DNA of 61,388 nucleotides, filler included, from 3 parts of 3 records of this genome joined end to end with filler, not necessarily neighbours in it, one strand, 5' to 3'; shown: positions 20,564 to 61,388, counted from the whole stretch's first letter. Program-made: numbers and translations. The notes: generated by a model not told the origin, from the sequence alone.

Positions 20564-20648
20564 TGGTGCGGTCAGAGAGACTTGAACTCTCACGGGAAAA
20601 CCCACACGGCCCTCAACCGTGCCTGTCTACCAATTCCAGCATGACCGC
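20564..20648 (-). tRNA. tRNA-Leu(GAG)
   Basis: Reverse complement GCGGTCATGCTGGAATTGGTAGACAGG-CACGG-TTGAGGG-CCGTG-variable arm-GAGAGTTCAAGTCTCTC-TGACCGCACCA; 85 nt with encoded CCA. Confidence 0.97.
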
Positions 20649-46449: not shown

Positions 46450-46526
46450 TGGTAGCGGAGGAGGGATTTGAACCCCCGACATCACGAATATGAGTCGTGC
46501 GCTCTGACCAACTGAGCTACTCCGCC
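46450..46526 (-). tRNA. tRNA-Met(CAT), elongator type
   Basis: Reverse complement GGCGGAGTAGCTCAGTTGGTCAGAGCG-CACGA-CTCATAT-TCGTG-ATGTC-GGGGGTTCAAATCCCT-CCTCCGCTACCA; lacks the initiator C1 mismatch and the triple G-C anticodon stem. Confidence 0.93.
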
Positions 46527-48970: not shown

Positions 48971-49306
48971 TTAAATACTAAAAGATTCACCGCATCCACA
49001 TGAATTCTTTTCATTAGGATTTTTAAAAACAAATCTAGAAGATAATTTATCTTTAGAATAATCCATCACTGAACCGAATAAAAAAATAATAGCTTTACGA
49101 TCAATAAAAACTTTGAAATCAGATTTCTTAACAATATCAAATTCATCTTCATTAATATCAATTGCAAAATCCATTTTATAAGAATAGCCACTGCATCCAC
49201 CCTTATCTACTCCAATTAGCAGACCCTTTGTTCCTTGTGGCCCACTCTTGATTAATTTTTTTATTTGTTTTGATGCATTTTCGGTAATATTCAAAACGTC
49301 ATTCAT
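48971..49306 (-). CDS. sufA: A-type Fe-S carrier (SufA/IscA)
   Basis: GGCSGYSY and NPNEKNSCGCGESF. Confidence 0.9.
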   Translation of the reverse strand: MNDVLNITENASKQIKKLIKSGPQGTKGLLIGVDKGGCSGYSYKMDFAIDINEDEFDIVKKSDFKVFIDRKAIIFLFGSVMDYSKDKLSSRFVFKNPNEKNSCGCGESFSI

Positions 49307-49324
49307 AGTTCTTTATAAAGCAAA

Positions 49325-49711
49325 TTAGAAAATATCTAAAGCAAGTTTTGCATCTTCAGACATTAAGTTTTTTGTCCAAGTAGGTTTCCAAACTAATTGC
49401 ACTTTAATTGACTTCAAGCCTTCTAAATGTTCAATTGATTTTCCAACGTTTCTTGGCATTTGACCAGCTACTGGACAATTTGGATTAGTTAAGGTCATTT
49501 CTATTAATATATTATTATCACTATTTTTTATTGAATAGATTAAACCCAAATCATACAAATTTACTGGTATTTCTGGATCCACTACAGTCTTAATGCACGT
49601 GATAATCTCTTCATTATTAATTTGACGGACCTCATTTTGAGATTCAAACTCTTTGTAGTAACTTCCATTTTTATTTGGTAAAAAATCTTCTAATTTTTTT
49701 TTTTCTGTCAT
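49325..49711 (-). CDS. sufT: DUF59 / SufT Fe-S maturation protein
   Basis: DPEIPVNLYDLGLIY, MTLTNPNCPVA. Confidence 0.88.
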   Translation of the reverse strand: MTEKKKLEDFLPNKNGSYYKEFESQNEVRQINNEEIITCIKTVVDPEIPVNLYDLGLIYSIKNSDNNILIEMTLTNPNCPVAGQMPRNVGKSIEHLEGLKSIKVQLVWKPTWTKNLMSEDAKLALDIF

Positions 49712-50907
49712 GACTTCAAGATTTCCTTTACTTCTTCTATAGCTTTAATAAAATAGTCAATGTCATCTATTGAATTATAAACACCAACAGACATTCTGGC
49801 ATTACCCGATATGTTAAAGCACTTCATAAATGGTTGCGCACAATGATGACCGGTCCTTATAGCAATATTTTTTTTATCTAAAAGCATTGCAAGATCGTTG
49901 AAATGAACACCATCAATATTAAAGGAAATAATAGAAGTTTGATTAGTAAAATCTCCATAAATTTTTATATCATTATTTTTTTTCATCTGATTATAAGCAT
50001 ATTGAGTTAGTTTGCTTTCATATTCATAAATTTTATCAATACCAACATCATTTATAAAATCTATTGATGAAGACAAACCTATCACTTCAGCTATTGGCGG
50101 TGTTCCTGCTTCAAACTTTTGAAAGCCTTCAAGATATGTGCTAGAATCAGTTTCAACATTTTTTATCATTGAACCACCACCTTGGTACGGCCCTAGTCTA
50201 TTGATCCATTTGCTTTTCATGTAGAGTACACCAAGTCCTGATGGGCCATATAGTTTATGTGCAGAAAAAACATAAAAGTCAGGGTTGAGTTCTTTTATAT
50301 TAAGTTTTTTATGAGGAACAAACTGACACCCATCAATTAATATTGGTACATTAAATTTATTAGCTTTAATTTTAATTGCCTCAAAATTTGTTATAGAGCC
50401 AGTTACATTTGACATGTGAGTAATTGCTAAAAGTTTTGTTTTAGAATTAATTTTTTCTAAAAGATCATTATAATCTAACTCACCAGTAGATTTTATTTTA
50501 GCTGTTATTATTTTAATTTTTTTCGATACTAAATGCCATGGAACTAAATTAGCATGGTGCTCCAAAGAAGTTAGCAGTACTTCATCTCCATCATTAAAGT
50601 AATTCTCTGAAAGGCAAGAAGACACTAAATTGATTCCTTCTGTTGCACTTTTTGTAAAAATTATATTTTCAGATGATGGAGAATTAATAAATTTACTAAC
50701 TGTTGACCTTGCATCCTCATAACGCTTTGTTATCTTAGAACTTAATTCGTATATTCCTCTGTGAATATTTGCATACTCATATGAATAACAATCAGTAACT
50801 GCTTTAATCATACTATCAACTTTTAATGCAGAAGCGGCAGTATCAAAAAAAACCAAATTTGGATTTTTAGAAAAAACCGGAAATCTTTTTTTTAAATCCT
50901 CAATCAT
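49708..50907 (-). CDS. sufS: Cysteine desulfurase SufS
   Basis: ANIHRG, EHHAN, SAHKLYGP, FEAGTP, RTGHHCAQP. Confidence 0.95.
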   Translation of the reverse strand: MIEDLKKRFPVFSKNPNLVFFDTAASALKVDSMIKAVTDCYSYEYANIHRGIYELSSKITKRYEDARSTVSKFINSPSSENIIFTKSATEGINLVSSCLSENYFNDGDEVLLTSLEHHANLVPWHLVSKKIKIITAKIKSTGELDYNDLLEKINSKTKLLAITHMSNVTGSITNFEAIKIKANKFNVPILIDGCQFVPHKKLNIKELNPDFYVFSAHKLYGPSGLGVLYMKSKWINRLGPYQGGGSMIKNVETDSSTYLEGFQKFEAGTPPIAEVIGLSSSIDFINDVGIDKIYEYESKLTQYAYNQMKKNNDIKIYGDFTNQTSIISFNIDGVHFNDLAMLLDKKNIAIRTGHHCAQPFMKCFNISGNARMSVGVYNSIDDIDYFIKAIEEVKEILKS

Positions 50908-52126
50908 TTAATAAGCCATTTAAATATTCTGATAAATTATTACTTATTTTTTGAGCAGTATTTTTATCTAGATTTCGCAAATCTTCATCAATAAAAGAAG
51001 AAATGATCATTTTCATAGCCTCGTTTTTACTAATACCTCGTGAACGCAAATAATACAAAGCACTTTCATCAACAGGACCTATTGTAGATCCATGAGAGCA
51101 TTTTACATCATCTGCAAAAATTCTTAATTCAGGTTTTGAGAAAAAAGAACAATTATCAGTTAATAAAATTCCTTTACTTAGCTGATATCCCTCAGTCTTT
51201 TGTGCATTTTCTGAGACAAAAGTATTACTATAATAACTTGCCTTTGAATGATCATTTAAAATACCTTTATAAGTTTGACCGCTGACACAATTTTCTTCGT
51301 TATGAATGATGTTAGTTTTATTGGAACATATATTTTCATCTTTTAGAAAAAAACAACCTTTTAATGATGCGTTTGAGAATTCTCCATTTAAATTAACATG
51401 GTGAAAATTTCTTACAAAACCATCAGAGAAATTATAAGTATTTTGATTGTAAGAAGAATTTTTTTTACAAAAAGTATTTGAAGTTAAATAAAGTTTATTT
51501 GAATTTGTAAAATTTTGAAAAATGTTATGCTTAATAGCAGAACCTTCTTCAACATTAATATTATAATTTATATTATTTATTGAGTTGTTTGTTAAATTAA
51601 AGTTATCTTCTAATTTAACTTCACATCTTTTTTTAAAATTGATAAAATTATTTTGAAATATTGTAAAATTATCAGAAGTATCATGTATTAGTCGAATGCT
51701 AAGTTTAGCATCACTTTTAATATTAAAAAAAACGCCAGAATTTAGAAAAATTTTATTTAAATCAATTATAATATCATCTAAATTATTTTTATCTTCATTT
51801 AAGAAAATTTTAAAATCTAAGTTTGTCAGATTTCTTATTTCAATATTATCATCTTCATAGTTTTTGCAAATTCCATTTACTAATTTGATTTCATAATTAA
51901 AATTATCAGTTAACGAAACCTTAGAAACTTCCTTTATAGGTTTATAAAAATAATCAAATTTAATTAAATCTGAAATCGTAAGATTTTTAAGACTTTCATT
52001 ATTTTTTTTATCGTAATTTTTTTTTGTAATTTTGTTAAATATTCTCTCCCTTTCTTTTGATAAAATATTATTATCGGAAAAAATATATTCTTTAGAATGA
52101 TTAATAAAATTACTTTCAAAAGACAT
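50900..52126 (-). CDS. sufD: Fe-S assembly protein SufD
   Basis: KPELRIFADDVKCSHGST, YYLRSRGI. Confidence 0.92.
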   Translation of the reverse strand: MSFESNFINHSKEYIFSDNNILSKERERIFNKITKKNYDKKNNESLKNLTISDLIKFDYFYKPIKEVSKVSLTDNFNYEIKLVNGICKNYEDDNIEIRNLTNLDFKIFLNEDKNNLDDIIIDLNKIFLNSGVFFNIKSDAKLSIRLIHDTSDNFTIFQNNFINFKKRCEVKLEDNFNLTNNSINNINYNINVEEGSAIKHNIFQNFTNSNKLYLTSNTFCKKNSSYNQNTYNFSDGFVRNFHHVNLNGEFSNASLKGCFFLKDENICSNKTNIIHNEENCVSGQTYKGILNDHSKASYYSNTFVSENAQKTEGYQLSKGILLTDNCSFFSKPELRIFADDVKCSHGSTIGPVDESALYYLRSRGISKNEAMKMIISSFIDEDLRNLDKNTAQKISNNLSEYLNGLLND

Positions 52127-52867
52127 TTAAAAATTCTGATAACCTGATGTCTCTATTTCAGCAGCTAAAGAAATATCACCTGATTTTACTATTTTACCAT
52201 TTCTCATAACATGAACATAATCAGGATGAATGTAGTCTAAGAGTTTTTGATAGTGTGTTATAATCAAATAAGAATTTTTTGGATTTTTAAATTTATTAAT
52301 TCCTTCTGTAACTATTCTTAAAGCATCAACATCAAGACCAGAGTCAGTTTCATCAAAAATTGTAAGTTCAGGATTAAGAATACTCATTTGAAGAATCTCG
52401 TATCTCTTTTTTTCACCACCTGAGAAACCTCTATTAATTGATCTCTTTAGCATATCACTACTTATACCTAGTTCTTCAGCATTTTTTCTTAACAGTTTCG
52501 CGAATGAAAGACTATCTAGTTCTGGTTTTTTTTTACTTTTAAGTTTTGAATTTAAAGAAGCGTGAAGAAATGGAGTAATATTTACACCTGGTATTTCAAC
52601 AGGATACTGAAAAGCCAAGAAAAGGCCTTTTTGAGCTCTTTCTTCAATATTTAAATCTAAAAGATTATCATCCTTAAAGATAACTTTACCTGAATTTACT
52701 TCGTAGTCTTCATTGCCTGCAAGAACATTTGCCAAAGTACTTTTACCACAACCATTTGGGCCCATTATAGCATGAACCTCACCTTCGTTTATGGTAATGT
52801 TAAAATCATTTAGAATTTTTTTACCCTCAATAGATACATTCAAATTATTGATATTTAAAAAAATCAT
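52127..52867 (-). CDS. sufC: Fe-S assembly ATPase SufC
   Basis: [35 protein letters not shown]. Confidence 0.97.
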
Positions 52868-54315
52868 CCAACACTTCCTTCTAATGAAATTGATACTAAC
52901 TTTTGAGCCTCTACAGCAAATTCCATCGGTAATTCTTGAAGGACTTGTTTACAAAATCCATTAACAATTAATGAAACTGCTTCTTCATGACTGAGACCTC
53001 TCTGTCTGCAATAAAATAATTGATCTTCATTAATTTTAGAAGTGGATGCTTCATGTTCAACAATCGCAGAATTATTTTTTGAGTCTATGTAAGGAATTGT
53101 ATGTGCTCCACATTTGTTACCAACTAAAAGAGAGTCACACTGAGTATAATTTCTTGCCTTATGAGCTTTTCTTAGAAATGAAACATTGCCTCTGTAAGTA
53201 TTTTGAGAGTTACCTAAAGAAATTCCCTTTGAAATAATTTTACTACGAGTATTTTTACCAATATGGGTCATTTTTGTGCCAGTATCGGCTTGTTGAAAAT
53301 TGTTTGTAATAGCAACAGAATAAAATTCTCCAATTGAGTTATCACCTTTAAGAATACAACTTGGATATTTCCAAGTCACAGCTGATCCTGTTTCTACTTG
53401 AGTCCAGGATATCTTGCTATTTTTACCTTTACATAAACCTCTTTTTGTAACAAAATTATAAATACCCCCTTTTCCCTCTTCATCACCTGGATACCAATTT
53501 TGAACAGTAGAATATTTTATTTCTGCATTTTCTAATGCAATTAATTCAACATTTGCAGCATGTAGTTGATTTGTATCTCTTTGTGGGGCAGTGCAGCCCT
53601 CAAGGTAACTAACATAACTTCCCTTGTCTGCAATAATCAAGGTTCTCTCAAACTGACCAGTTTCTTCAGCATTAATTCTAAAATAAGTAGAAAGTTCCAT
53701 TGGGCATTTAACGTTTTCAGGTATATAGACAAAAGAACCATCAGTAAAAACTGCAGAATTAAGGGCAGAGAATGAATGATCGCCCGGAGGGATAACTGAT
53801 CCAAGATATTTTTTCACCAATTCAGGATGATTTTGTACAGCCTCACTAATAGAGCAAAAAATAATACCAAGCTTTTCTAGCTCACCCTTATATGTAGTTG
53901 CAACTGAAACGCTATCAAAAACAGCATCAACTGCAACTCCAGCTAATACTTTCTGTTCTTCAAGAGGAATACCAAGCTTGTTATAAGTTTCAATTAATTT
54001 TGGATCTACCTCACTTAAGTCTTTGGGCTTATCTTCAAAACCTTTTGGAGCAGAATAATAATAAATATCCTGATAATCAATTTCTGGATACTTTAAATTT
54101 GCCCACTGAGGATCTAACATTTTTAACCATTTTTTATAACAATCAAGTCTCCAAGTAAGCATCCACTGAGGTTCGTTTTTCCTCTTAGAAATATATTTTA
54201 TTACTTCCTCATCCAGGCCTTTCTTTGGCCTATCTGAGTCAATATCAGTTACAAATCCATATTTATATTTGTCTTGAACGTATTTATCTAATGTTTGACT
54301 AGTTTCTGTATCCAC
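52864..54315 (-). CDS. sufB: Fe-S assembly protein SufB
   Basis: [39 protein letters not shown] start. Confidence 0.98.
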
Positions 54316-54374
54316 AATTAATCAAATAAGGTTTTATTACTAAAAATCCACTCTTTTCAACTAAAAACAGGTTA

Positions 54375-54394
54375 ATTTAGAACCGATTCTAAAT
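54375..54394. promoter_or_regulatory. Irr-box (ICE)-like palindrome upstream of sufB
   Basis: ATTTAGAA-CCGA-TTCTAAAT; half-sites match the ICE TTTAGAA/TTCTAAA but the spacer is 4 nt rather than 3. Confidence 0.5.
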
Positions 54395-54403
54395 ATCTAA
54401 ATA

Positions 54404-55495
54404 TTAAGTAATCCATCCCCCACCTAAAACTTGATCATTTTTATAAAAAACACAAGCTTGGCCTGGGGAAGTAGAGGAAATTGGTTCGTTAAATAGAAAA
54501 TATCCACCATCATTAATAATTTTCAATTTTCCTGATATTTCATTTTGAGTTGATCTGATTTTTGCTGAACATTCAAGTTCTTGATTTAAAATCACTTTAT
54601 CTAGTAAATTTATATTTTTAAAAATTATTTTATTTTTTTGTAAACTTTCGTAAGGAGCTAAAACAATATAATTTTGATTTTTATTAACCTCCTTAACATA
54701 TAGAGGTTTTTCTTGACCCCCAACTCCTATTCCTTTTCTTTGACCAATAGTATAATTAGCTATGCCCTTATGAACTCCAATTTTATTTCCATTAATATCA
54801 AATATATCACCTTCTTTGTTAGCCTCAGGTTGAATCTTGTTAATTAGATCTCTATAAGAATCAGAAGTAACAAAGCATATATCTTGGCTATCAGGTTTAT
54901 CACTAACGATTAAATTATAATCAACTGCCATTTGTCTTATTTCCGATTTTAGATAACTACCAAGAGGGAAACGAACATAATCTAATTGATCCTGGAGAGT
55001 TGCGAATAAAAAATAACTTTGATCCTTTGTTTTGTCTTTTGCCTTAAAAAGTTTTGATTCTTTGAGACCACCTTTCCTTATTGCATAATGCCCTGTAACA
55101 AGAGCATCAGCGTTTATTTTTTTTGATTCTTCCAATAAATCAGAAAATTTTACAGTTTGATTGCATTGAATACAAGGAACTGGAGTTTCTCCATTTGCAT
55201 ATGAATTAACGAAACTATTAATAACTCCATTAAAAAATTTATCTTGATAATCAAAAATTTTATGAGCAAAATCATACTGTTCTGCTACTTTTTTTGCGTC
55301 ATTAATATCTATTCCTGCACAACATGATTTTGACCTTGAGGAATTTGACTGATTATAAAGCCTTAAGGTTACACCCGTAACATCATATCCTTCCTTCTTT
55401 AGCTTTACCGCAGCGACTGAACTATCAACACCTCCAGACATTGCTACAATTATCTTTGTGTCTTTTTCTTTTTTATTAAATCCAAGTGAGTTCAT
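54404..55495 (-). CDS. mnmA: tRNA 2-thiouridylase MnmA
   Basis: AMSGGVDSS, TPVPCIQCN, TGHY, KDQSYFL, DSQDICF, YTIGQRKG, PGQACVFY. Confidence 0.97.
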   Translation of the reverse strand: MNSLGFNKKEKDTKIIVAMSGGVDSSVAAVKLKKEGYDVTGVTLRLYNQSNSSRSKSCCAGIDINDAKKVAEQYDFAHKIFDYQDKFFNGVINSFVNSYANGETPVPCIQCNQTVKFSDLLEESKKINADALVTGHYAIRKGGLKESKLFKAKDKTKDQSYFLFATLQDQLDYVRFPLGSYLKSEIRQMAVDYNLIVSDKPDSQDICFVTSDSYRDLINKIQPEANKEGDIFDINGNKIGVHKGIANYTIGQRKGIGVGGQEKPLYVKEVNKNQNYIVLAPYESLQKNKIIFKNINLLDKVILNQELECSAKIRSTQNEISGKLKIINDGGYFLFNEPISSTSPGQACVFYKNDQVLGGGWIT

Positions 55496-55553
55496 AAATT
55501 AGTTGATCTATATATTTACAAAGTCACTTTACTTCAATATTAGCTTTTAATTA

Positions 55554-56195
55554 ATGGTTGATTTATTAATTTCGGGACCTGAGGGTAAAATTGAAGCGAA
55601 ATACACCCACAATAATAATAATGAGTCTCCAATAGTGCTTATTCTCCACCCAGACCCATCAAGAGGGGGGACTATGAACACGAAGATAGTTTTTAAACTC
55701 TATAAATTATTTATAAATAATGGCTTTTCAGCCATAAGATTTAATTTTAGAGGTGTTGGAAAAAGTGAGGGAATATTTGACGACGGAGAAGGTGAATTGA
55801 GTGATGCAGCTAGTGTTTTAGACTGGTTACAGCAATACAATACCAACTCTAAAATTTGCTGGGTAGCTGGCTTTTCTTTTGGTTCTTGGGTTGCAATGCA
55901 ATTATTAATGAGAAGACCTGAAATAAATGGATTTGTGAGTGTCTCACCTCCAGCAAACCTTAGAGATTTTAGCTTTCTTGCTCCCTGCCCTTCATCAGGA
56001 CTTATAGTTCATGGAGATAAAGATAACATTGCATCTTTTGACTCTTCAAAAATTTTATCAGAAAAATTGCAGAAGCAAAAAAAAGTCGATATTAAATTTA
56101 AGCCAATCAAAGGTGCAGATCATTTTTATGAGAATTATTCTCAAGAATTTAGTAATATTGTTGATAGTTACATTAAAGATAGTCTAAAATCTTAA
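55554..56195 (+). CDS. Alpha/beta hydrolase (Atu1826-like, often near Fe-S clusters)
   Basis: HPDPSRGGTM, RFNFRGVG, GFSFG, LLMRRPE, GADHF. Confidence 0.9.
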   Translation: MVDLLISGPEGKIEAKYTHNNNNESPIVLILHPDPSRGGTMNTKIVFKLYKLFINNGFSAIRFNFRGVGKSEGIFDDGEGELSDAASVLDWLQQYNTNSKICWVAGFSFGSWVAMQLLMRRPEINGFVSVSPPANLRDFSFLAPCPSSGLIVHGDKDNIASFDSSKILSEKLQKQKKVDIKFKPIKGADHFYENYSQEFSNIVDSYIKDSLKS

Positions 56196-56207
56196 TATAA
56201 TAATTAT

Positions 56208-57449
56208 ATGAATTTTAAATCTGATTTTTTAAGAGAAATTAATTCTCGTGGTTTTATTTATCAATCAAGTGATATTGATAATCTAGATAAGCTGTTATCT
56301 AAAGAGAAAATAACTGCATATATTGGTTTTGATATAACTAGTGACAGTCTTCACATTGGAAGTTTAGTACAATTAATGCTACTTAATTGGTTAGATACTT
56401 ATGGTCATAAAACTATAGCTTTAGTGGGAGGTGGAACTACCCTTGTAGGGGACCCTTCTGGAAAAGATAGCACCAGAAAAATCATGACTTTGGATGAAAT
56501 TTCTAAAAATATACAAAAAATAGAGAAAACCTTTAATCAGTTTATTAATTTAGAAAAAAATGCTTCAATAATAAATAATTATGATTGGTTAGCAGATTTA
56601 AATTATATTAGTTTTTTAAGAGATATAGGTTCTAAATTAACTATTAATAAAATGCTAACATATGAGTCAGTTAAAAATAGATTAGATAGAGAGCAGCCTC
56701 TTACATTTTTAGAATTTAATTATATGCTTCTTCAATCCTATGACTTTTATCATTTAAAAAAAAATTACAACTGCGTTCTTCAAATGGGAGGATCTGATCA
56801 GTGGGGAAATATTATTAATGGTATAGATTTGGTAAGAAAAATGCTTAATGAAAAAGTGTATGCTCTTACCTCTCCATTAATAACTAATGCTGATGGCTCT
56901 AAAATGGGTAAAACTGCAAAAGGCGCAATATGGTTAGATGAGTCAAAATTAAGTAATTTTGAATTCTATCAATTTTGGAGAAATATTGAAGATGAAAATG
57001 TTAATAAATTTTTGAAATTATTTACAAAAATAAATTTAAATGAAATCAAAAAATTATCACAATTAAAAGGTAAAGAAATTAATGAAGCAAAAAAAATTCT
57101 TGCATTTGAGGTAACAAAAATAACCAGGGGCTTAGAGTCTGCAAATGAAGCAAAAGATATTGCAAATAATATTTTTAATAAAAAAACTCTTGATGAGAGA
57201 ATTCCTACATTTGATGTAAAGTTTTCCGAAATTGAAGGTTCAAATTTTTTAATTTTAGATGCAATTGAAAAACTTAATTTAAGTAAAAGCAGAGGTGACA
57301 CTAAAAGATTAATTAAATCTAAAGGTATTAAAGTTAATGATGAAATTGTTAGTGCACAAGACTTATCTCTTAAAGTTTACTCTAAATTTTCAGAGATTAA
57401 AATCAGTGTAGGTAAAAAGAATTTTGGAATTTTAAAAATAAAAAAATAA
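56208..57449 (+). CDS. tyrS: Tyrosine--tRNA ligase
   Basis: YIGFD...SLHIGS, GDPSG, QMGGSDQWGNI, KMGKT, C-terminal S4 domain. Confidence 0.98.
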   Translation: MNFKSDFLREINSRGFIYQSSDIDNLDKLLSKEKITAYIGFDITSDSLHIGSLVQLMLLNWLDTYGHKTIALVGGGTTLVGDPSGKDSTRKIMTLDEISKNIQKIEKTFNQFINLEKNASIINNYDWLADLNYISFLRDIGSKLTINKMLTYESVKNRLDREQPLTFLEFNYMLLQSYDFYHLKKNYNCVLQMGGSDQWGNIINGIDLVRKMLNEKVYALTSPLITNADGSKMGKTAKGAIWLDESKLSNFEFYQFWRNIEDENVNKFLKLFTKINLNEIKKLSQLKGKEINEAKKILAFEVTKITRGLESANEAKDIANNIFNKKTLDERIPTFDVKFSEIEGSNFLILDAIEKLNLSKSRGDTKRLIKSKGIKVNDEIVSAQDLSLKVYSKFSEIKISVGKKNFGILKIKK

Positions 57450-57454
57450 CTACA

Positions 57455-58547
57455 TTATTGAGATAGTGATTTTTCTAAAAAGTCATCAATCTCTCCATCT
57501 AGAACATCATTTACATTGGATGACTCGTGATTAGTTCGTAAATCCTTAATTAATTTATAAGGATGAAGTATATATGATCTTATTTGACTACCCCATCCTA
57601 TTTGTTGCTTTTGATCATTAATTACATTTTCCTTTTCTTTTTTCTTTTGTAACTCATGTTCATATATTCTAGATTTTAACATATTCATTGCATAGGCTTT
57701 ATTCTTATGTTGAGATCTGTCATTCTGACATTGTACAACAATATCAGTAGGAATATGCTTAATTCTAACTGCACTATCAGTAGTATTAACATGCTGTCCA
57801 CCAGCGCCTGAAGCTCTATATGTATCTACTCTCAGATCTGATTCTTGTATTTCAATTTCAATTTTATCATCTATCTCAGGAAAAACCCATACACTTGCAA
57901 AACTTGTATGCCTTCTTTTATTACTATCAAAAGGTGAAATTCTTACTAATCTATGAATACCACTCTCTCTTTTTAACCAGCCATAAGCATAGTCTTTTTC
58001 AATTTTAATGGTTGTTGATTTTATGCCTGCCTCTTCACCTCTTGTCTCCTGCAAAAGCAATACTTTTGCTTCTTTTTTTTCAGCCCATCTAATATACATT
58101 CTTGTAAGCATTTCTGCCCAATCTTGACTTTCCGTCCCCCCTGCCCCTGCATGGATTTCAAGAAAAATATTGTTTGGATCAACGCTTTCACTCATTAAAT
58201 TCTGAAGTCTTGATTTATTTGAAATATCAAGAGTTTTAATGGTTTCCGGTAAAAGCTGATCAAAATACTCTTCATTATTTTCTGAAACTGCTATTTTAAA
58301 TAAACCTTCAATGTACTCAAGGTTCTCCTTAATGATGTCAAAATCTTTTATTTTTTTTTCTATATTTTTTATTTTTTGAAATATAGGTTTGGCATTATTA
58401 TCTTTCCAAATTTCGGGTTTTTCACTTTTAGTTTTTAATTCTGTTAATTCAATTTTTAACGCAGAAAAGTCAAACCCCCCTCCTCAGTAAATCATAATTT
58501 TTTTTTATAATCTCTAAGTTTTTTAAAATTATCTCTCTTGATGTCAT
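57455..58547 (-). CDS. prfB: Peptide chain release factor 2, with programmed +1 frameshift
   Basis: SPF and GGQ motifs. ATG at 58547, 25 codons, in-frame TGA at 58472-58470; the +1 frame (GAC TTT TCT...) is open for 92 codons into the listed ORF, giving about 363 aa. Confidence 0.95.
58469..58484 (-). promoter_or_regulatory. prfB frameshift cassette (internal SD + shift site)
   Basis: AGGAGG-GGG-GTT-TGA-C on the minus strand. Confidence 0.85.
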
Positions 58548-60895
58548 TAATTAGTTAATAAACCACCTGTTCCAGAAATGGAATTGTTAATTATACCTAG
58601 CGAATCCAAAATACTAACATCATCTTTTGTATAAGGTTCCGATCCCTCTATAAATGCCTCCATAATACTGTCTTTATCACTTGAAGGAAGCCCGGTTTTA
58701 TTATTTATTGTCACAAAACTCAAGCCAGACGGTACTCTAAAAGGGATATTATTTTCATTGGTTTTAGATTTTTTTATAAAATCTCCAAATATAGGAACCG
58801 CAACAGATGAACCTGTTTGCTTATAACCTAGGTTTTTTGGAGTATCATAACCAACAAAAATACCAACTACTAAATCAGGTGAATAACCAATAAACCAAGC
58901 ATCTTTGTTATCATTAGTTGTACCTGTTTTACCTGCGAGAGGTATTTTTAAATTTTTTAAACTTTTCGCTGTTCCTCTTTGTATTACACCCTCCATCATA
59001 GATGTAATTTGGTAAGCTATTTTTGGATCAAGTATTTCTTTGGCTAAATTATGTATTTCAGGTAATTTATAATTAATATTTATCGTTTCTAATTTGCAAT
59101 TGTTGCAAAACTTATTTGAATTATCAAAGATTTTTTTTCCTTTCCTAGAATAAATACTTTTAATAATATTTGGCTTAATTTCTTTACCACCATTAGCAAT
59201 GATCCCATAAGCATTTACTAAATCAATTAATGTCACTAAACCTGAACCTAGGGACATTGACATATTTCTATCTAAGTATTTTTCAATCTTAAAATCTTTT
59301 GCTGATAATAAGATTGTATCAAGACCAATTTTATTTGCTAATCTAATAGTCATCAAATTTCTTGATTTTTCAATACCTGTTCTCATTGTAGTTAAGCCAT
59401 AAAACTCATCAGAATAATTTGCTGGTTTCCATTTTGGCAAACCTGGACCCTGATCTATCACATAAGGAGCGTCTAATATTAATGTTGATGGCGTATAACC
59501 TTTATTTAAGGCTGAAATATATACAAATGGTTTAAAGGCAGATCCTGGCTGTCTTTTTGCTTGAGTAGATCTATTGAATTGACTAAGTTGAAAACTAAAT
59601 CCACCTGACATTGCTAGTATATCTCCTGTAAAAGGATCAATAACTATAATGGCCCCATTAACATTTGGAATTTGCTTAACGACATATGATAAATTATTTT
59701 TTTCAATAAATAATAAATCGTTTTTTTCAAATTTTTTATTAATTAACCATTTGTTTGCTTTAAGAGTAAGATCAATTTCAATATTTTTTAATTTATTACT
59801 TGATAAAAATAATTTATTTGAATCTACTTTTTCTATTTTTGTCAAAAACCATTTATTAGGAAAAGGGTTTTTTATTTCTTTAATTACGTCTTCAAATTTT
59901 ATTTGATAATCATGTAAATTACCAACAGGCCCTCTCCAACCTTGATTTTTATCATACTGAATTAACCCATTTACTAGTGACTCCTCTGCTAATTGTTGTA
60001 AATCAGAATTTAGAGAAGTCTTTATAACTAAACCCTCAGAATATAAAGTTTCAGCTCCATAACTTGAAAATAGTTTTTTTCTAATTTCTTCATAAAAGTA
60101 ATCAGCCCCAATAAACGCTCTGCTATCTCTAGCAATTAACTTAATTGGTTTATTTTTAAAACTAAGATCATCGTATTGTATAAAGCCATTTTCATACATC
60201 CTATCAATTACCCAATTTCTTCTTTCAAATGCTTTTACATAATTTTTGTGAGGATTATAATTATTTGGAGCTTTAGGCAACGATGCCAAAAAAGCAATTT
60301 CACTTAAGTCTAATTCATTAATTGATTTATTAAAATAATTTAAACTAGCTGCAGCAATTCCATAAGATCTGAATCCTAAATAAATATCATTTAGATATAA
60401 TTCTAATATTTGATTTTTACTTAAAATATTTTCTACTCTAATAGATAATAATATCTCTTTAATCTTTCTATCAAAACTAACTTCATTTGATAATAATAAA
60501 TTTTTAACAACTTGCTGGGTAATAGTTGAGGCGCCAATAAGTTTTTGATTATTAAAAATTGTCAAAATATTGGATATTGTTGCTCTAATAATAGCAATAG
60601 CGTCTATTCCAAAATGAGTATAAAAATTTTTATCTTCAGAAGATAAAAAGGCATTAATTAATTGTGTTGGAATCCTTTCGATTGGAATAAAAATTCTTTC
60701 CTCTCGATGATATGATTTTAATAAAAAACCATCTGAGCTGTAAAGCCTTGAAGATAACTCTGGTTTGTATTTAAGAATTTTACTATAGCTTGGTAATTCT
60801 GGACTGTATTTCCATAAGAGACTAACAAATAACAAACTTGTAATAACTGCTGATAAAGTAAAAAAAGTTATAAAAATTTTTAAAATTTTTAACAT
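58547..60895 (-). CDS. mrcA: Penicillin-binding protein 1A
   Basis: EDKNFY.H.G, GASTITQQ, RKIKE transglycosylase motifs; SAFK, SRN, KTG transpeptidase motifs. Confidence 0.95.
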   Translation of the reverse strand: MLKILKIFITFFTLSAVITSLLFVSLLWKYSPELPSYSKILKYKPELSSRLYSSDGFLLKSYHREERIFIPIERIPTQLINAFLSSEDKNFYTHFGIDAIAIIRATISNILTIFNNQKLIGASTITQQVVKNLLLSNEVSFDRKIKEILLSIRVENILSKNQILELYLNDIYLGFRSYGIAAASLNYFNKSINELDLSEIAFLASLPKAPNNYNPHKNYVKAFERRNWVIDRMYENGFIQYDDLSFKNKPIKLIARDSRAFIGADYFYEEIRKKLFSSYGAETLYSEGLVIKTSLNSDLQQLAEESLVNGLIQYDKNQGWRGPVGNLHDYQIKFEDVIKEIKNPFPNKWFLTKIEKVDSNKLFLSSNKLKNIEIDLTLKANKWLINKKFEKNDLLFIEKNNLSYVVKQIPNVNGAIIVIDPFTGDILAMSGGFSFQLSQFNRSTQAKRQPGSAFKPFVYISALNKGYTPSTLILDAPYVIDQGPGLPKWKPANYSDEFYGLTTMRTGIEKSRNLMTIRLANKIGLDTILLSAKDFKIEKYLDRNMSMSLGSGLVTLIDLVNAYGIIANGGKEIKPNIIKSIYSRKGKKIFDNSNKFCNNCKLETININYKLPEIHNLAKEILDPKIAYQITSMMEGVIQRGTAKSLKNLKIPLAGKTGTTNDNKDAWFIGYSPDLVVGIFVGYDTPKNLGYKQTGSSVAVPIFGDFIKKSKTNENNIPFRVPSGLSFVTINNKTGLPSSDKDSIMEAFIEGSEPYTKDDVSILDSLGIINNSISGTGGLLTN

Positions 60896-61025
60896 ATTTA
60901 TAAAACTAGATTGTGAAATTGATCAAAATATGACAATAGAGAATTATTAACAATATTAAATCACTTATACAAATTCTATTTATAATGAACAAATTATACT
61001 TAATATACAACGGAGTTTCCCAAAA

Positions 61026-61388
61026 ATGTCTAAAACAATACTTATTGATGCATCTAATTCAGAACAAACACGAATCGCAGTTACACATAATGATAAATTA
61101 GATGACTTTGAAATAGAGTCTAATAAAAAAAATTCAGTAAAAGGAGATGTATATCTTGCAAAAATAACAAGAGTTGAGCCATCATTACAAGCTGCTTTTG
61201 TTGAGTTCGGTGCTAACAGGAATGGCTTCTTACCTTTGACTGAAATTCATCCTGATTACTTTAAAATCCCTTCAACTGACAAAGAAGAAGTGAAAGAATT
61301 ATTAGATCAATTAACAAAAAATAATGAAAATACTGATGATAATCAAAAACCTTTACCCAAAGAACAAGATGATGAAATAAAAGAACAA
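61026..61388 (+). CDS. rne: Ribonuclease E/G, N-terminal part (runs off window end)
   Basis: Manual translation MSKTILIDASNSEQTRIAV...KGDVYLAKITRVEPSLQAAFVEFGANRNGFLPLTEIHPDYF. Confidence 0.95.
   Translation, partial: MSKTILIDASNSEQTRIAVTHNDKLDDFEIESNKKNSVKGDVYLAKITRVEPSLQAAFVEFGANRNGFLPLTEIHPDYFKIPSTDKEEVKELLDQLTKNNENTDDNQKPLPKEQDDEIKEQ

Follow-up and report, generated by a model that had tools for sequence, protein, structure and literature searches.

A GUU shift codon in the predicted prfB frameshift cassette of a clade of uncultured marine alphaproteobacteria

Introduction

The frameshift site of prfB, the gene for release factor 2 (RF2), is the textbook example of +1 frameshifting in bacteria. 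Its canonical cassette consists of an ORF0 of about 25 codons for the RF2 N-terminus, an internal Shine-Dalgarno (SD) sequence 3 nt before the shift codon, an RF2-readable stop (UGA, rarely UAA) followed by C, and a +1 ORF for the rest of the protein. In the E. coli type the central elements are AGGGGG, a UAU spacer, CUU UGA, and then C (PMC13245932, PMC12421855). According to a 2016 review, CUU_U was “by far the most efficient” among 32 P-site variants tested, and the alternative UUU_U occurs in a “small minority of species” (PMC5009743). A 2025 survey of 12,753 RefSeq representative genomes with NCBI annotation reported the motif in 8,164 of them, with CTTTGA in nearly every motif; the only exceptions that it names are 21 TTTTTGA genomes from Aquificota and Gammaproteobacteria (PMC12421855).

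Outside bacteria, GUU-UGA recurs in eukaryotic antizyme genes as a natural +1 site; it is described from Cryptococcus neoformans, Aureobasidium pullulans, Cryptomonas and shore crabs, and has been suggested to be one of a group of interchangeable efficient antizyme sites (PMC1874602). Here we describe a prfB cassette in which GUU stands in the place of CUU, and compare it with the cassettes, tRNAs and 16S rRNA 3' ends of related genomes. The cassette belongs to a clade of uncultured marine alphaproteobacteria.

Results

Anatomy of the prfB cassette

The window, the whole stretch of 61,388 nt, carries on its minus strand a 25-codon ORF that ends AGG AGG GGG GTT TGA C (Table 1). Its translation is MTSREIILKNLEIIKKNYDLLRRGV*, and the zero frame meets its next stop 7 codons beyond the TGA. 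The first-pass annotation had read this locus as a prfB programmed-frameshift cassette with GTT for CTT, with TGA as codon 26, an SD spacing of 3 nt and a +1 frame open through SPF and GGQ. The sequence reads in just this way, and the identification is supported by the match of ORF1 to the NCBIfam prfB profile TIGR00020 (478.3 bits, cut-off 370) and by the homologous position of the cassette. ORF1 residues 3-336 align with profile positions 18-352 of 353, and the profile positions absent at the ORF1 N-terminus should be the part supplied by ORF0. The predicted full-length RF2 has 25 + 338 = 363 aa, with the junction ...RRGV-DFSALK.... In alignments with canonical RF2 N-termini, the ORF0 peptides place Val exactly at the position of Leu in the others, the junctions being ...L(L/I)RRGV / D(F/Y) in the clade versus ...RR(S/G)L / DY and RGYL / DQ in canonical proteins. 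Because all relatives examined have their prfB cassette at the homologous position, a chance origin is not an issue. A mechanical ORF list gives just the 246-aa ATG ORF and the 25-aa ORF0; as the annotation had also pointed out, 117 N-terminal residues of RF2 (25 + 92) are missed in this way.

Table 1. Features of the prfB locus in the window and positions of the tRNA-Val(GAC) genes of related genomes
Feature	Position	Strand	Description
TAA stop of upstream 782-aa ORF (58547-60895)	58547..58549	-	one-base overlap with the prfB ATG (TAATG)
prfB start codon ATG	58547	-	opens ORF0
ORF0 of prfB	58473..58547	-	25 sense codons, ATG to GTT; RF2 N-terminus MTSREIILKNLEIIKKNYDLLRRGV
ORF0 codon 21, CTG	58487-58485	-	read from window sequence
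ORF0 codons AGG and AGG	58484-58482 and 58481-58479	-	codons 22 and 23
Internal Shine-Dalgarno-like AGGAGG	58479..58484	-	3 nt 5' of the shift codon
Six-G run	58480-58475	-
Spacer codon GGG (Gly)	58476..58478	-	E-site codon when the shift occurs; read from window sequence
Shift (P-site) codon GTT (Val)	58473..58475	-	replaces canonical CTT (Leu); read from window sequence
In-frame TGA	58470..58472	-	codon 26; RF2-specific stop sensing the RF2 level; read from window sequence
C after the stop	58469..58469	-	weak-termination context TGA-C; read from window sequence
ORF1, +1 frame, RF2 body	57455..58471	-	338 codons from GAC (Asp), plus TAA stop
246-aa ATG ORF	57455-58195	-	from mechanical ORF list
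TAA stop of ORF1	57457-57455	-
tRNA-Val(GAC) with C33	L175:1501-1575 (G079); L204:1501-1577 (G080); L238-L267

Among the hallmarks of prfB cassettes, RF2 identity, an ORF0 with UGA, an SD 3 nt upstream, the 3' C and an open +1 frame are all present, and the ORF0 and ORF1 of the locus correspond to their canonical counterparts in role and in protein-alignment position. The slippery CUU_U or UUU_U is absent; because the window has GTT_T instead, we file the site as a variant and not as a standard cassette. Two differences from the canonical type stand out. The P-site codon is GUU (Val) in place of CUU (Leu), so that a C-U mismatch would replace the canonical first-position G-U wobble after the shift, and the clade's spacer codon is G-rich and purine-ending (GGG, GGA or GCA), in contrast to UAU, CAU, AGU and similar. 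The UUU_UGA variant of prfB is likewise a natural, lineage-restricted swap of the shift codon in which SD, spacing, UGA and C are all kept, but UUU re-pairs perfectly on UUU and GUU does not. With the antizyme GUU-UGA sites the locus shares the shifty-stop hexanucleotide, the +1 direction and a sensor stop within an autoregulatory circuit; those sites differ in being read by eukaryotic ribosomes, in sensing polyamines and not a release factor, in belonging to an unrelated gene, and in having a 5' element or a pseudoknot as stimulator, with no SD.

Upstream of prfB lies a 782-aa ORF that, from a reading of its translation, we take to be penicillin-binding-protein-like. The TAATG overlap of its stop with the prfB start suggests translational coupling. 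TGA terminates 3 of the 11 open frames of at least 150 codons in the clade-derived part of the window, and the tRNA-Trp of the clade genome G079 has the anticodon CCA; UGA is therefore a stop in this lineage, RF2 is needed, and the logic of the sensor holds.

The window joins two lineages

Window positions 1-27771 are 94-100% identical to, and colinear with, G001:C1:289401-317979, except for a single stretch, about 3 kb long, where identity is 79%. The prfB of G001 itself, a Pelagibacter-like genome, reads TAC CTT TGA. Positions 48971-61388 are 79-86% identical to and colinear with the clade genomes G050, G078 and G079, and a tRNA-Met at 46450-46526 is 97-98% identical to the copies in the same three genomes. 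The intervening 27.8-46.4 kb, about 18 kb of low G+C (23-26%), have no close match among the four genomes compared. By these alignments the window combines DNA of two lineages, which differ by about 17% in 16S, and an assembly chimera is the simplest reading. The GTT finding is unaffected, with prfB well inside the clade-like part. The left, G001-like part of the window contains a tRNA-Leu(GAG) at 20564-20648; this gene therefore belongs to the other lineage and was rejected as evidence on the clade.

GTT-TGA-C is conserved throughout the clade

Cassettes were collected from five sets of relatives. The first comprised relatives of G001, the genome with the most 31-mers in common with the window: 41 genomes were searched and 40 matched, and among the matches listed CTT TGA was found in 30/30 loci, with RF2 51-59% identical. 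A second set, drawn from genome contigs and limited to the best 80 prfB loci, held 3 loci with GTT TGA C, 39 with CTT TGA, 36 uninterrupted in-frame genes and 2 unresolved loci (L065, L105). The three GTT loci are the three closest among these 80: L031 at 85% identity, L032 at 65% and L033 (from G044) at 64%. A GTT-TGA pattern match in L104 is not a cassette, as it sits within an uninterrupted gene, and was rejected.

The third set was built around G043, the genome of L032, and covered 61 genomes. Among the matches listed, AGGAGG-(GGG/GGA/GCA)-GTT-TGA-C was present in 30/30 loci, at 64-91% amino acid identity, and G062, fetched separately, has the identical arrangement with GTT-TGA-C. G059, whose contig stops before the site, was left out of the count, and in five further genomes on the G043 side the RF2 N-terminus was not found. 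A sister group (G080-G103, RF2 53-58% identical) formed the fourth set; 22 of its genomes had an RF2 match and 21 were read, G099 being left out, and all 21 cassettes show CTT TGA C. They mostly carry AGGAGG-AGT, with AGGAGG-GGT in G080 and AGGGGG-GGT in G084 and G092. In the fifth set, the best 80 prfB loci of metagenome contigs, GTT TGA occurs in 8/8 loci of at least 68% identity (the contig of L274 begins 21 nt upstream of the site, yet shows GGA GTT TGA), and the remaining 72 comprise 56 loci with CTT TGA, 12 in-frame genes and 4 unresolved loci.

In total, GTT-TGA-C is found in 41/41 clade sequences with a readable cassette, namely the window together with 32 genomes and 8 metagenome contigs, and RF2 identity to the window protein is 64-91%; most of these sequences are MAGs, SAGs or metagenome contigs, some possibly from the same populations, and some of the metagenome contigs may share source populations with the clade genomes. 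With CTT in 21/21 sister cassettes, the proposal of the first-pass annotation that this is a rare natural variant is supported by the relatives' cassettes, the collection of which it had recommended. The TGA is followed by C in all 41. The shift codon is never GTA, GTC or GTG, and codons nearby vary synonymously (TAT/TAC, TTA/CTG, CTG/CTA). The codon 5' of GTT is GGG in 25, GGA in 14 and GCA in 2 of the 41, and the G run is 6, 4 or 3 long, so the extended purine run that the annotation had singled out is not a conserved feature.

The site was also compared with metagenome contigs at least 85% alike at 58300-58700, from three marine DNA runs of three studies and one RNA-library run. The sole polymorphism in the cassette among the differences listed is 58476 C>T (plus strand; GGG>GGA in coding sense), and these differences include no indel and no substitution at 58469-58475 (76 weaker differences lie outside those listed). 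Neither a CTT nor a G run of a length that removes the stop, either of which would have spoken against the variant, appears among the differences listed for these contigs or in the 41 clade sequences. It is extremely improbable that the GTT site stems from a base-call or homopolymer assembly error, or that prfB is a decaying pseudogene. A run of six Gs invites errors on some platforms and the window is a composite contig, but the identical arrangement recurs in 40 other assemblies of genomes, single-cell genomes and metagenomes, the contigs of separate studies have no listed change at the site, and the prfB region lies within more than 12 kb that are colinear with clade genomes. The ORF1 reading frame is also intact, with a score that exceeds the curated prfB cut-off.

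RF2 might also be made here with no ribosomal frameshift, if translation started internally in the +1 frame or if the polymerase slipped on the G run during transcription. We regard this as hardly credible, the presence of the homopolymer being the one point found in its favor. The +1 frame is closed by TGA/TAA just 5' of the SD, 4 codons before GAC (342 codons open versus 338), and these 4 codons include no ATG, GTG or TTG. The first ATG of that frame is the start of the 246-aa ORF and would delete 92 residues; because there is no start between the upstream stop and GAC, internal initiation would lose at least that many. Slippage is hard to reconcile with a G run that is 6, 4 or 3 long across members. 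A 378-nt contig from the RNA library also crosses the cassette without a gap, a weak point against slippage and not proof of transcription, given that the library possibly contained DNA; the RNA runs contain only 6-10% of the sampled words.

A single origin of the GTT cassette

In a tree of 82 RF2 ORF1 sequences, obtained by a quick IQ-TREE search, a single branch with SH-aLRT support of 99 separates the 31 GTT rows from all others. Within this group one subclade has 8 rows and the other 23, and the window is placed next to L111 (from G050), with 91% identity. On this tree the GTT cassette has one origin and is deeply conserved. The 16S rRNA of the GTT-clade genomes compared, one from each subclade, is 87% identical to that of the sister genome G080 and 82-83% to that of the Pelagibacter-like G003.

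As a separate observation, RF2 of the two deep GTT subclades is only about 65% identical, and the 16S rRNAs of one genome from each (L236/G064 versus L237/G067) are 98.0% identical. Protein divergence is very fast here relative to that of rRNA.

The Shine-Dalgarno sequence and the anti-SD are those of the sister group

AGGAGG precedes GTT in 40/41 clade sequences, the other being AGGGGG in L270. In the sister group, with CTT, the SD is AGGAGG in 19/21 cassettes, again 3 nt from the shift codon, and AGGGGG in 2/21. Two clade genomes (G064, G067) and one sister genome share the 16S 3' end GGATCACCTCCTTT, which in G064 and G067 contains the CCTCC complementary to AGGAGG. The first-pass annotation had proposed that a stronger or sliding SD compensates for poor re-pairing. 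We reject this, as the sister group has the same SD and spacing, and an altered anti-SD is rejected on the identity of the 16S 3' ends. An alternative SD register, with AGGGGG abutting GTT, is confined to clade members of the GGG type, and since the codon before GTT varies (GGG/GGA/GCA), a conserved sliding SD is ruled out.

L270, a metagenome contig, reads AGG GGG GGA GTT TGA C some 20 nt upstream of its position 292; there the SD has drifted inside the clade and GTT stays.

tRNA partners

G079 yields 31 tRNA matches, of which 30 could be named. They include Val(UAC), Val(GAC), Leu(GAG), Leu(UAG), Gly(UCC), Gly(GCC), Asp(GUC), Phe(GAA) and Trp(CCA), and the Val and Leu tRNA set of the sister genome G080 is the same. 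The two genomes have identical anticodon stem-loops in Val(UAC) and Leu(GAG); in Val(GAC) the 7-nt loop is the same and the stem differs. tRNA-Leu(GAG) is found in 29/37 clade-side genomes at 98-100% identity and in 21/24 sister genomes at 89-92%. With this canonical shifty tRNA retained, its loss is not the cause of the switch. The anatomy of the cassette, its conservation and its unchanged tRNA and rRNA partners are established by these comparisons. Nothing that we compared accounts for GUU replacing CUU: tRNA-Leu(GAG) is kept, and the Val and Leu anticodon loops are the same in G079 and G080.

tRNA-Val(GAC) itself has an unusual loop. Position 33 is C (loop U-C-GAC-A-C) in 25/25 clade genomes and 6/6 sister genomes read, and the other tRNAs inspected in G079 and G080 all have U33. 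Elongator tRNAs are described as having a conserved U33, exceptions being rare (PMC5041475). The C33 may be relevant to shiftiness; because the CUU-using sister group has it too, it is at most permissive. A DNA query with tRNA-Val(GAC) gave no match in five Pelagibacter-like genomes, from which we draw no inference.

Three further observations concern the tRNA complement. The 31st match in G079 to the tRNA model RF00005 (L225:123-196, G079:C5:58772-58845) is a decayed tRNA-like stretch scoring 29.7 bits, just at the cut-off, with no ARAGORN call and a fold no better than those of shuffled sequences; it may be what is left of a tRNA gene or of an integration site. A tRNA-Arg with the anticodon UCG is present in both G079 (L186) and G080 (L216). 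Arg(ACG) is present in G080 and was not found among the 31 matches of G079, a genome that is possibly incomplete.

Discussion

Proposed mechanism of the frameshift

We consider it very probable that this is a functional prfB whose full-length RF2 would arise through an autoregulatory +1 programmed frameshift with peptidyl-tRNA-Val on GUU. The order of translation events, the shift efficiency, and true re-pairing as against capture of Asp-tRNA are what we infer from the arrangement of the site. Ribosomes would initiate at the ATG and translate 25 codons, then pause with the P, A and E sites occupied by GUU, UGA-C and GGG, respectively, and with AGGAGG, 3 nt behind the P-site codon, paired to the 16S anti-SD. 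With RF2 plentiful, termination would take place at UGA. With RF2 scarce, the Val-tRNA (anticodon GAC or UAC) would move from GUU onto UUU, keeping the A35-U pair and the wobble at position 34, and GAC (Asp) would then be decoded in the +1 frame. The annotation was right that such re-pairing requires a first-position C-U mismatch, as the Val anticodon NAC gives C36-U.

This mismatch is also a reason to weigh a shift at the same site and into the same frame with no re-pairing, in which the Val-tRNA stays on or leaves GUU, the first base of UGA is occluded and Asp-tRNA binds GAC, perhaps with the help of C33. Precedent comes from the Ty3 site GCG_AGU_U, for which the 2016 review describes occlusion, or dissociation without re-pairing (PMC5009743). 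Ty3 resembles the prfB site in having a peptidyl-tRNA that lacks a full set of standard +1-frame pairs; it differs in that the GUU site can pair at two of three positions and that its A site holds a stop and not a rare sense codon. C33, a departure from the U33 of elongator tRNAs and constant in the clade genomes read, would fit such a route, but its presence in the CUU-keeping sister group makes it insufficient for the switch, and GUU could be decoded just as well by tRNA-Val(UAC), whose U33 is normal. That the shift codon ends in T in every case fits a need for re-pairing with U-U-U at two positions. On balance we judge a shift without re-pairing to be unlikely.

Slippage one codon earlier is a further conceivable route to the same frame. 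On GGG_G, formed by GGG and the G of GTT in the window and 24 other clade sequences, tRNA-Gly could re-pair perfectly in the +1 direction, giving a product ...RRG-F-D.... However, the spacer is GGA or GCA in 16/41 clade sequences, which lack this re-pairing and all keep GTT-TGA-C, and for that reason a Gly-tRNA slip is not the conserved mechanism. The A site would hold no slow codon at that step, the pause signal of UGA coming one codon later, and tRNA-Gly(CCC) was not found among the 31 tRNA matches of the possibly incomplete G079. We give this route very little credence, and retain the shift of tRNA-Val on GUU.

By the E. coli data, a GUU site should be weaker than CUU. The spacer is a second count on which the site looks weak: in a reporter, frameshifting was lowest when the E-site codon had G:C pairs at its second and third positions, a result that covers UNN codons only (PMC2377451). 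RF2 autoregulation may tolerate a low shift efficiency, as about 7% has been argued to be sufficient in Flavobacterium (PMC10798248). As a tentative reading, the lineage may have fixed an RF2 site that has no first-position pair after the shift, with SD, anti-SD and tRNAs no stronger than those of its CUU sister. CUU would then not be required if the site is efficient, and the route may be an occlusion or capture like that of antizyme or Ty3, possibly aided by the order-specific C33 of tRNA-Val(GAC).

Novelty and significance

The main text of the 2025 survey contains no mention of GTT, GUU or valine (PMC12421855), and its supplementary tables may list cases. In the passages of the 2016 review that deal with prfB, GUU is not mentioned as a shift codon, its three GUU passages concerning other systems (PMC5009743). 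No report of GUU in prfB was found in the literature searched, supplementary tables again being a place where cases may be listed. GUU is most likely a previously unreported shift codon in an otherwise known type of prfB cassette. Since the survey used RefSeq representatives, and the three clade records seen are one MAG and two single-cell assemblies of uncultured Alphaproteobacteria, the clade was probably not sampled by it. Pipelines and surveys based on CTTTGA, or on RefSeq representatives only, would split or miss a prfB with GUU.

As a third natural prfB shift codon, deeply conserved beside a sister group with CUU, GUU would offer a natural experiment on the extent of P-site re-pairing that the mechanism needs, on the trade-off of the E-site codon and the SD against re-pairing, and on the lowest shift efficiency that still allows autoregulation. 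If the site shifts efficiently, SD-driven +1 frameshifting in bacteria would not depend mechanistically on the near-universal CUU.
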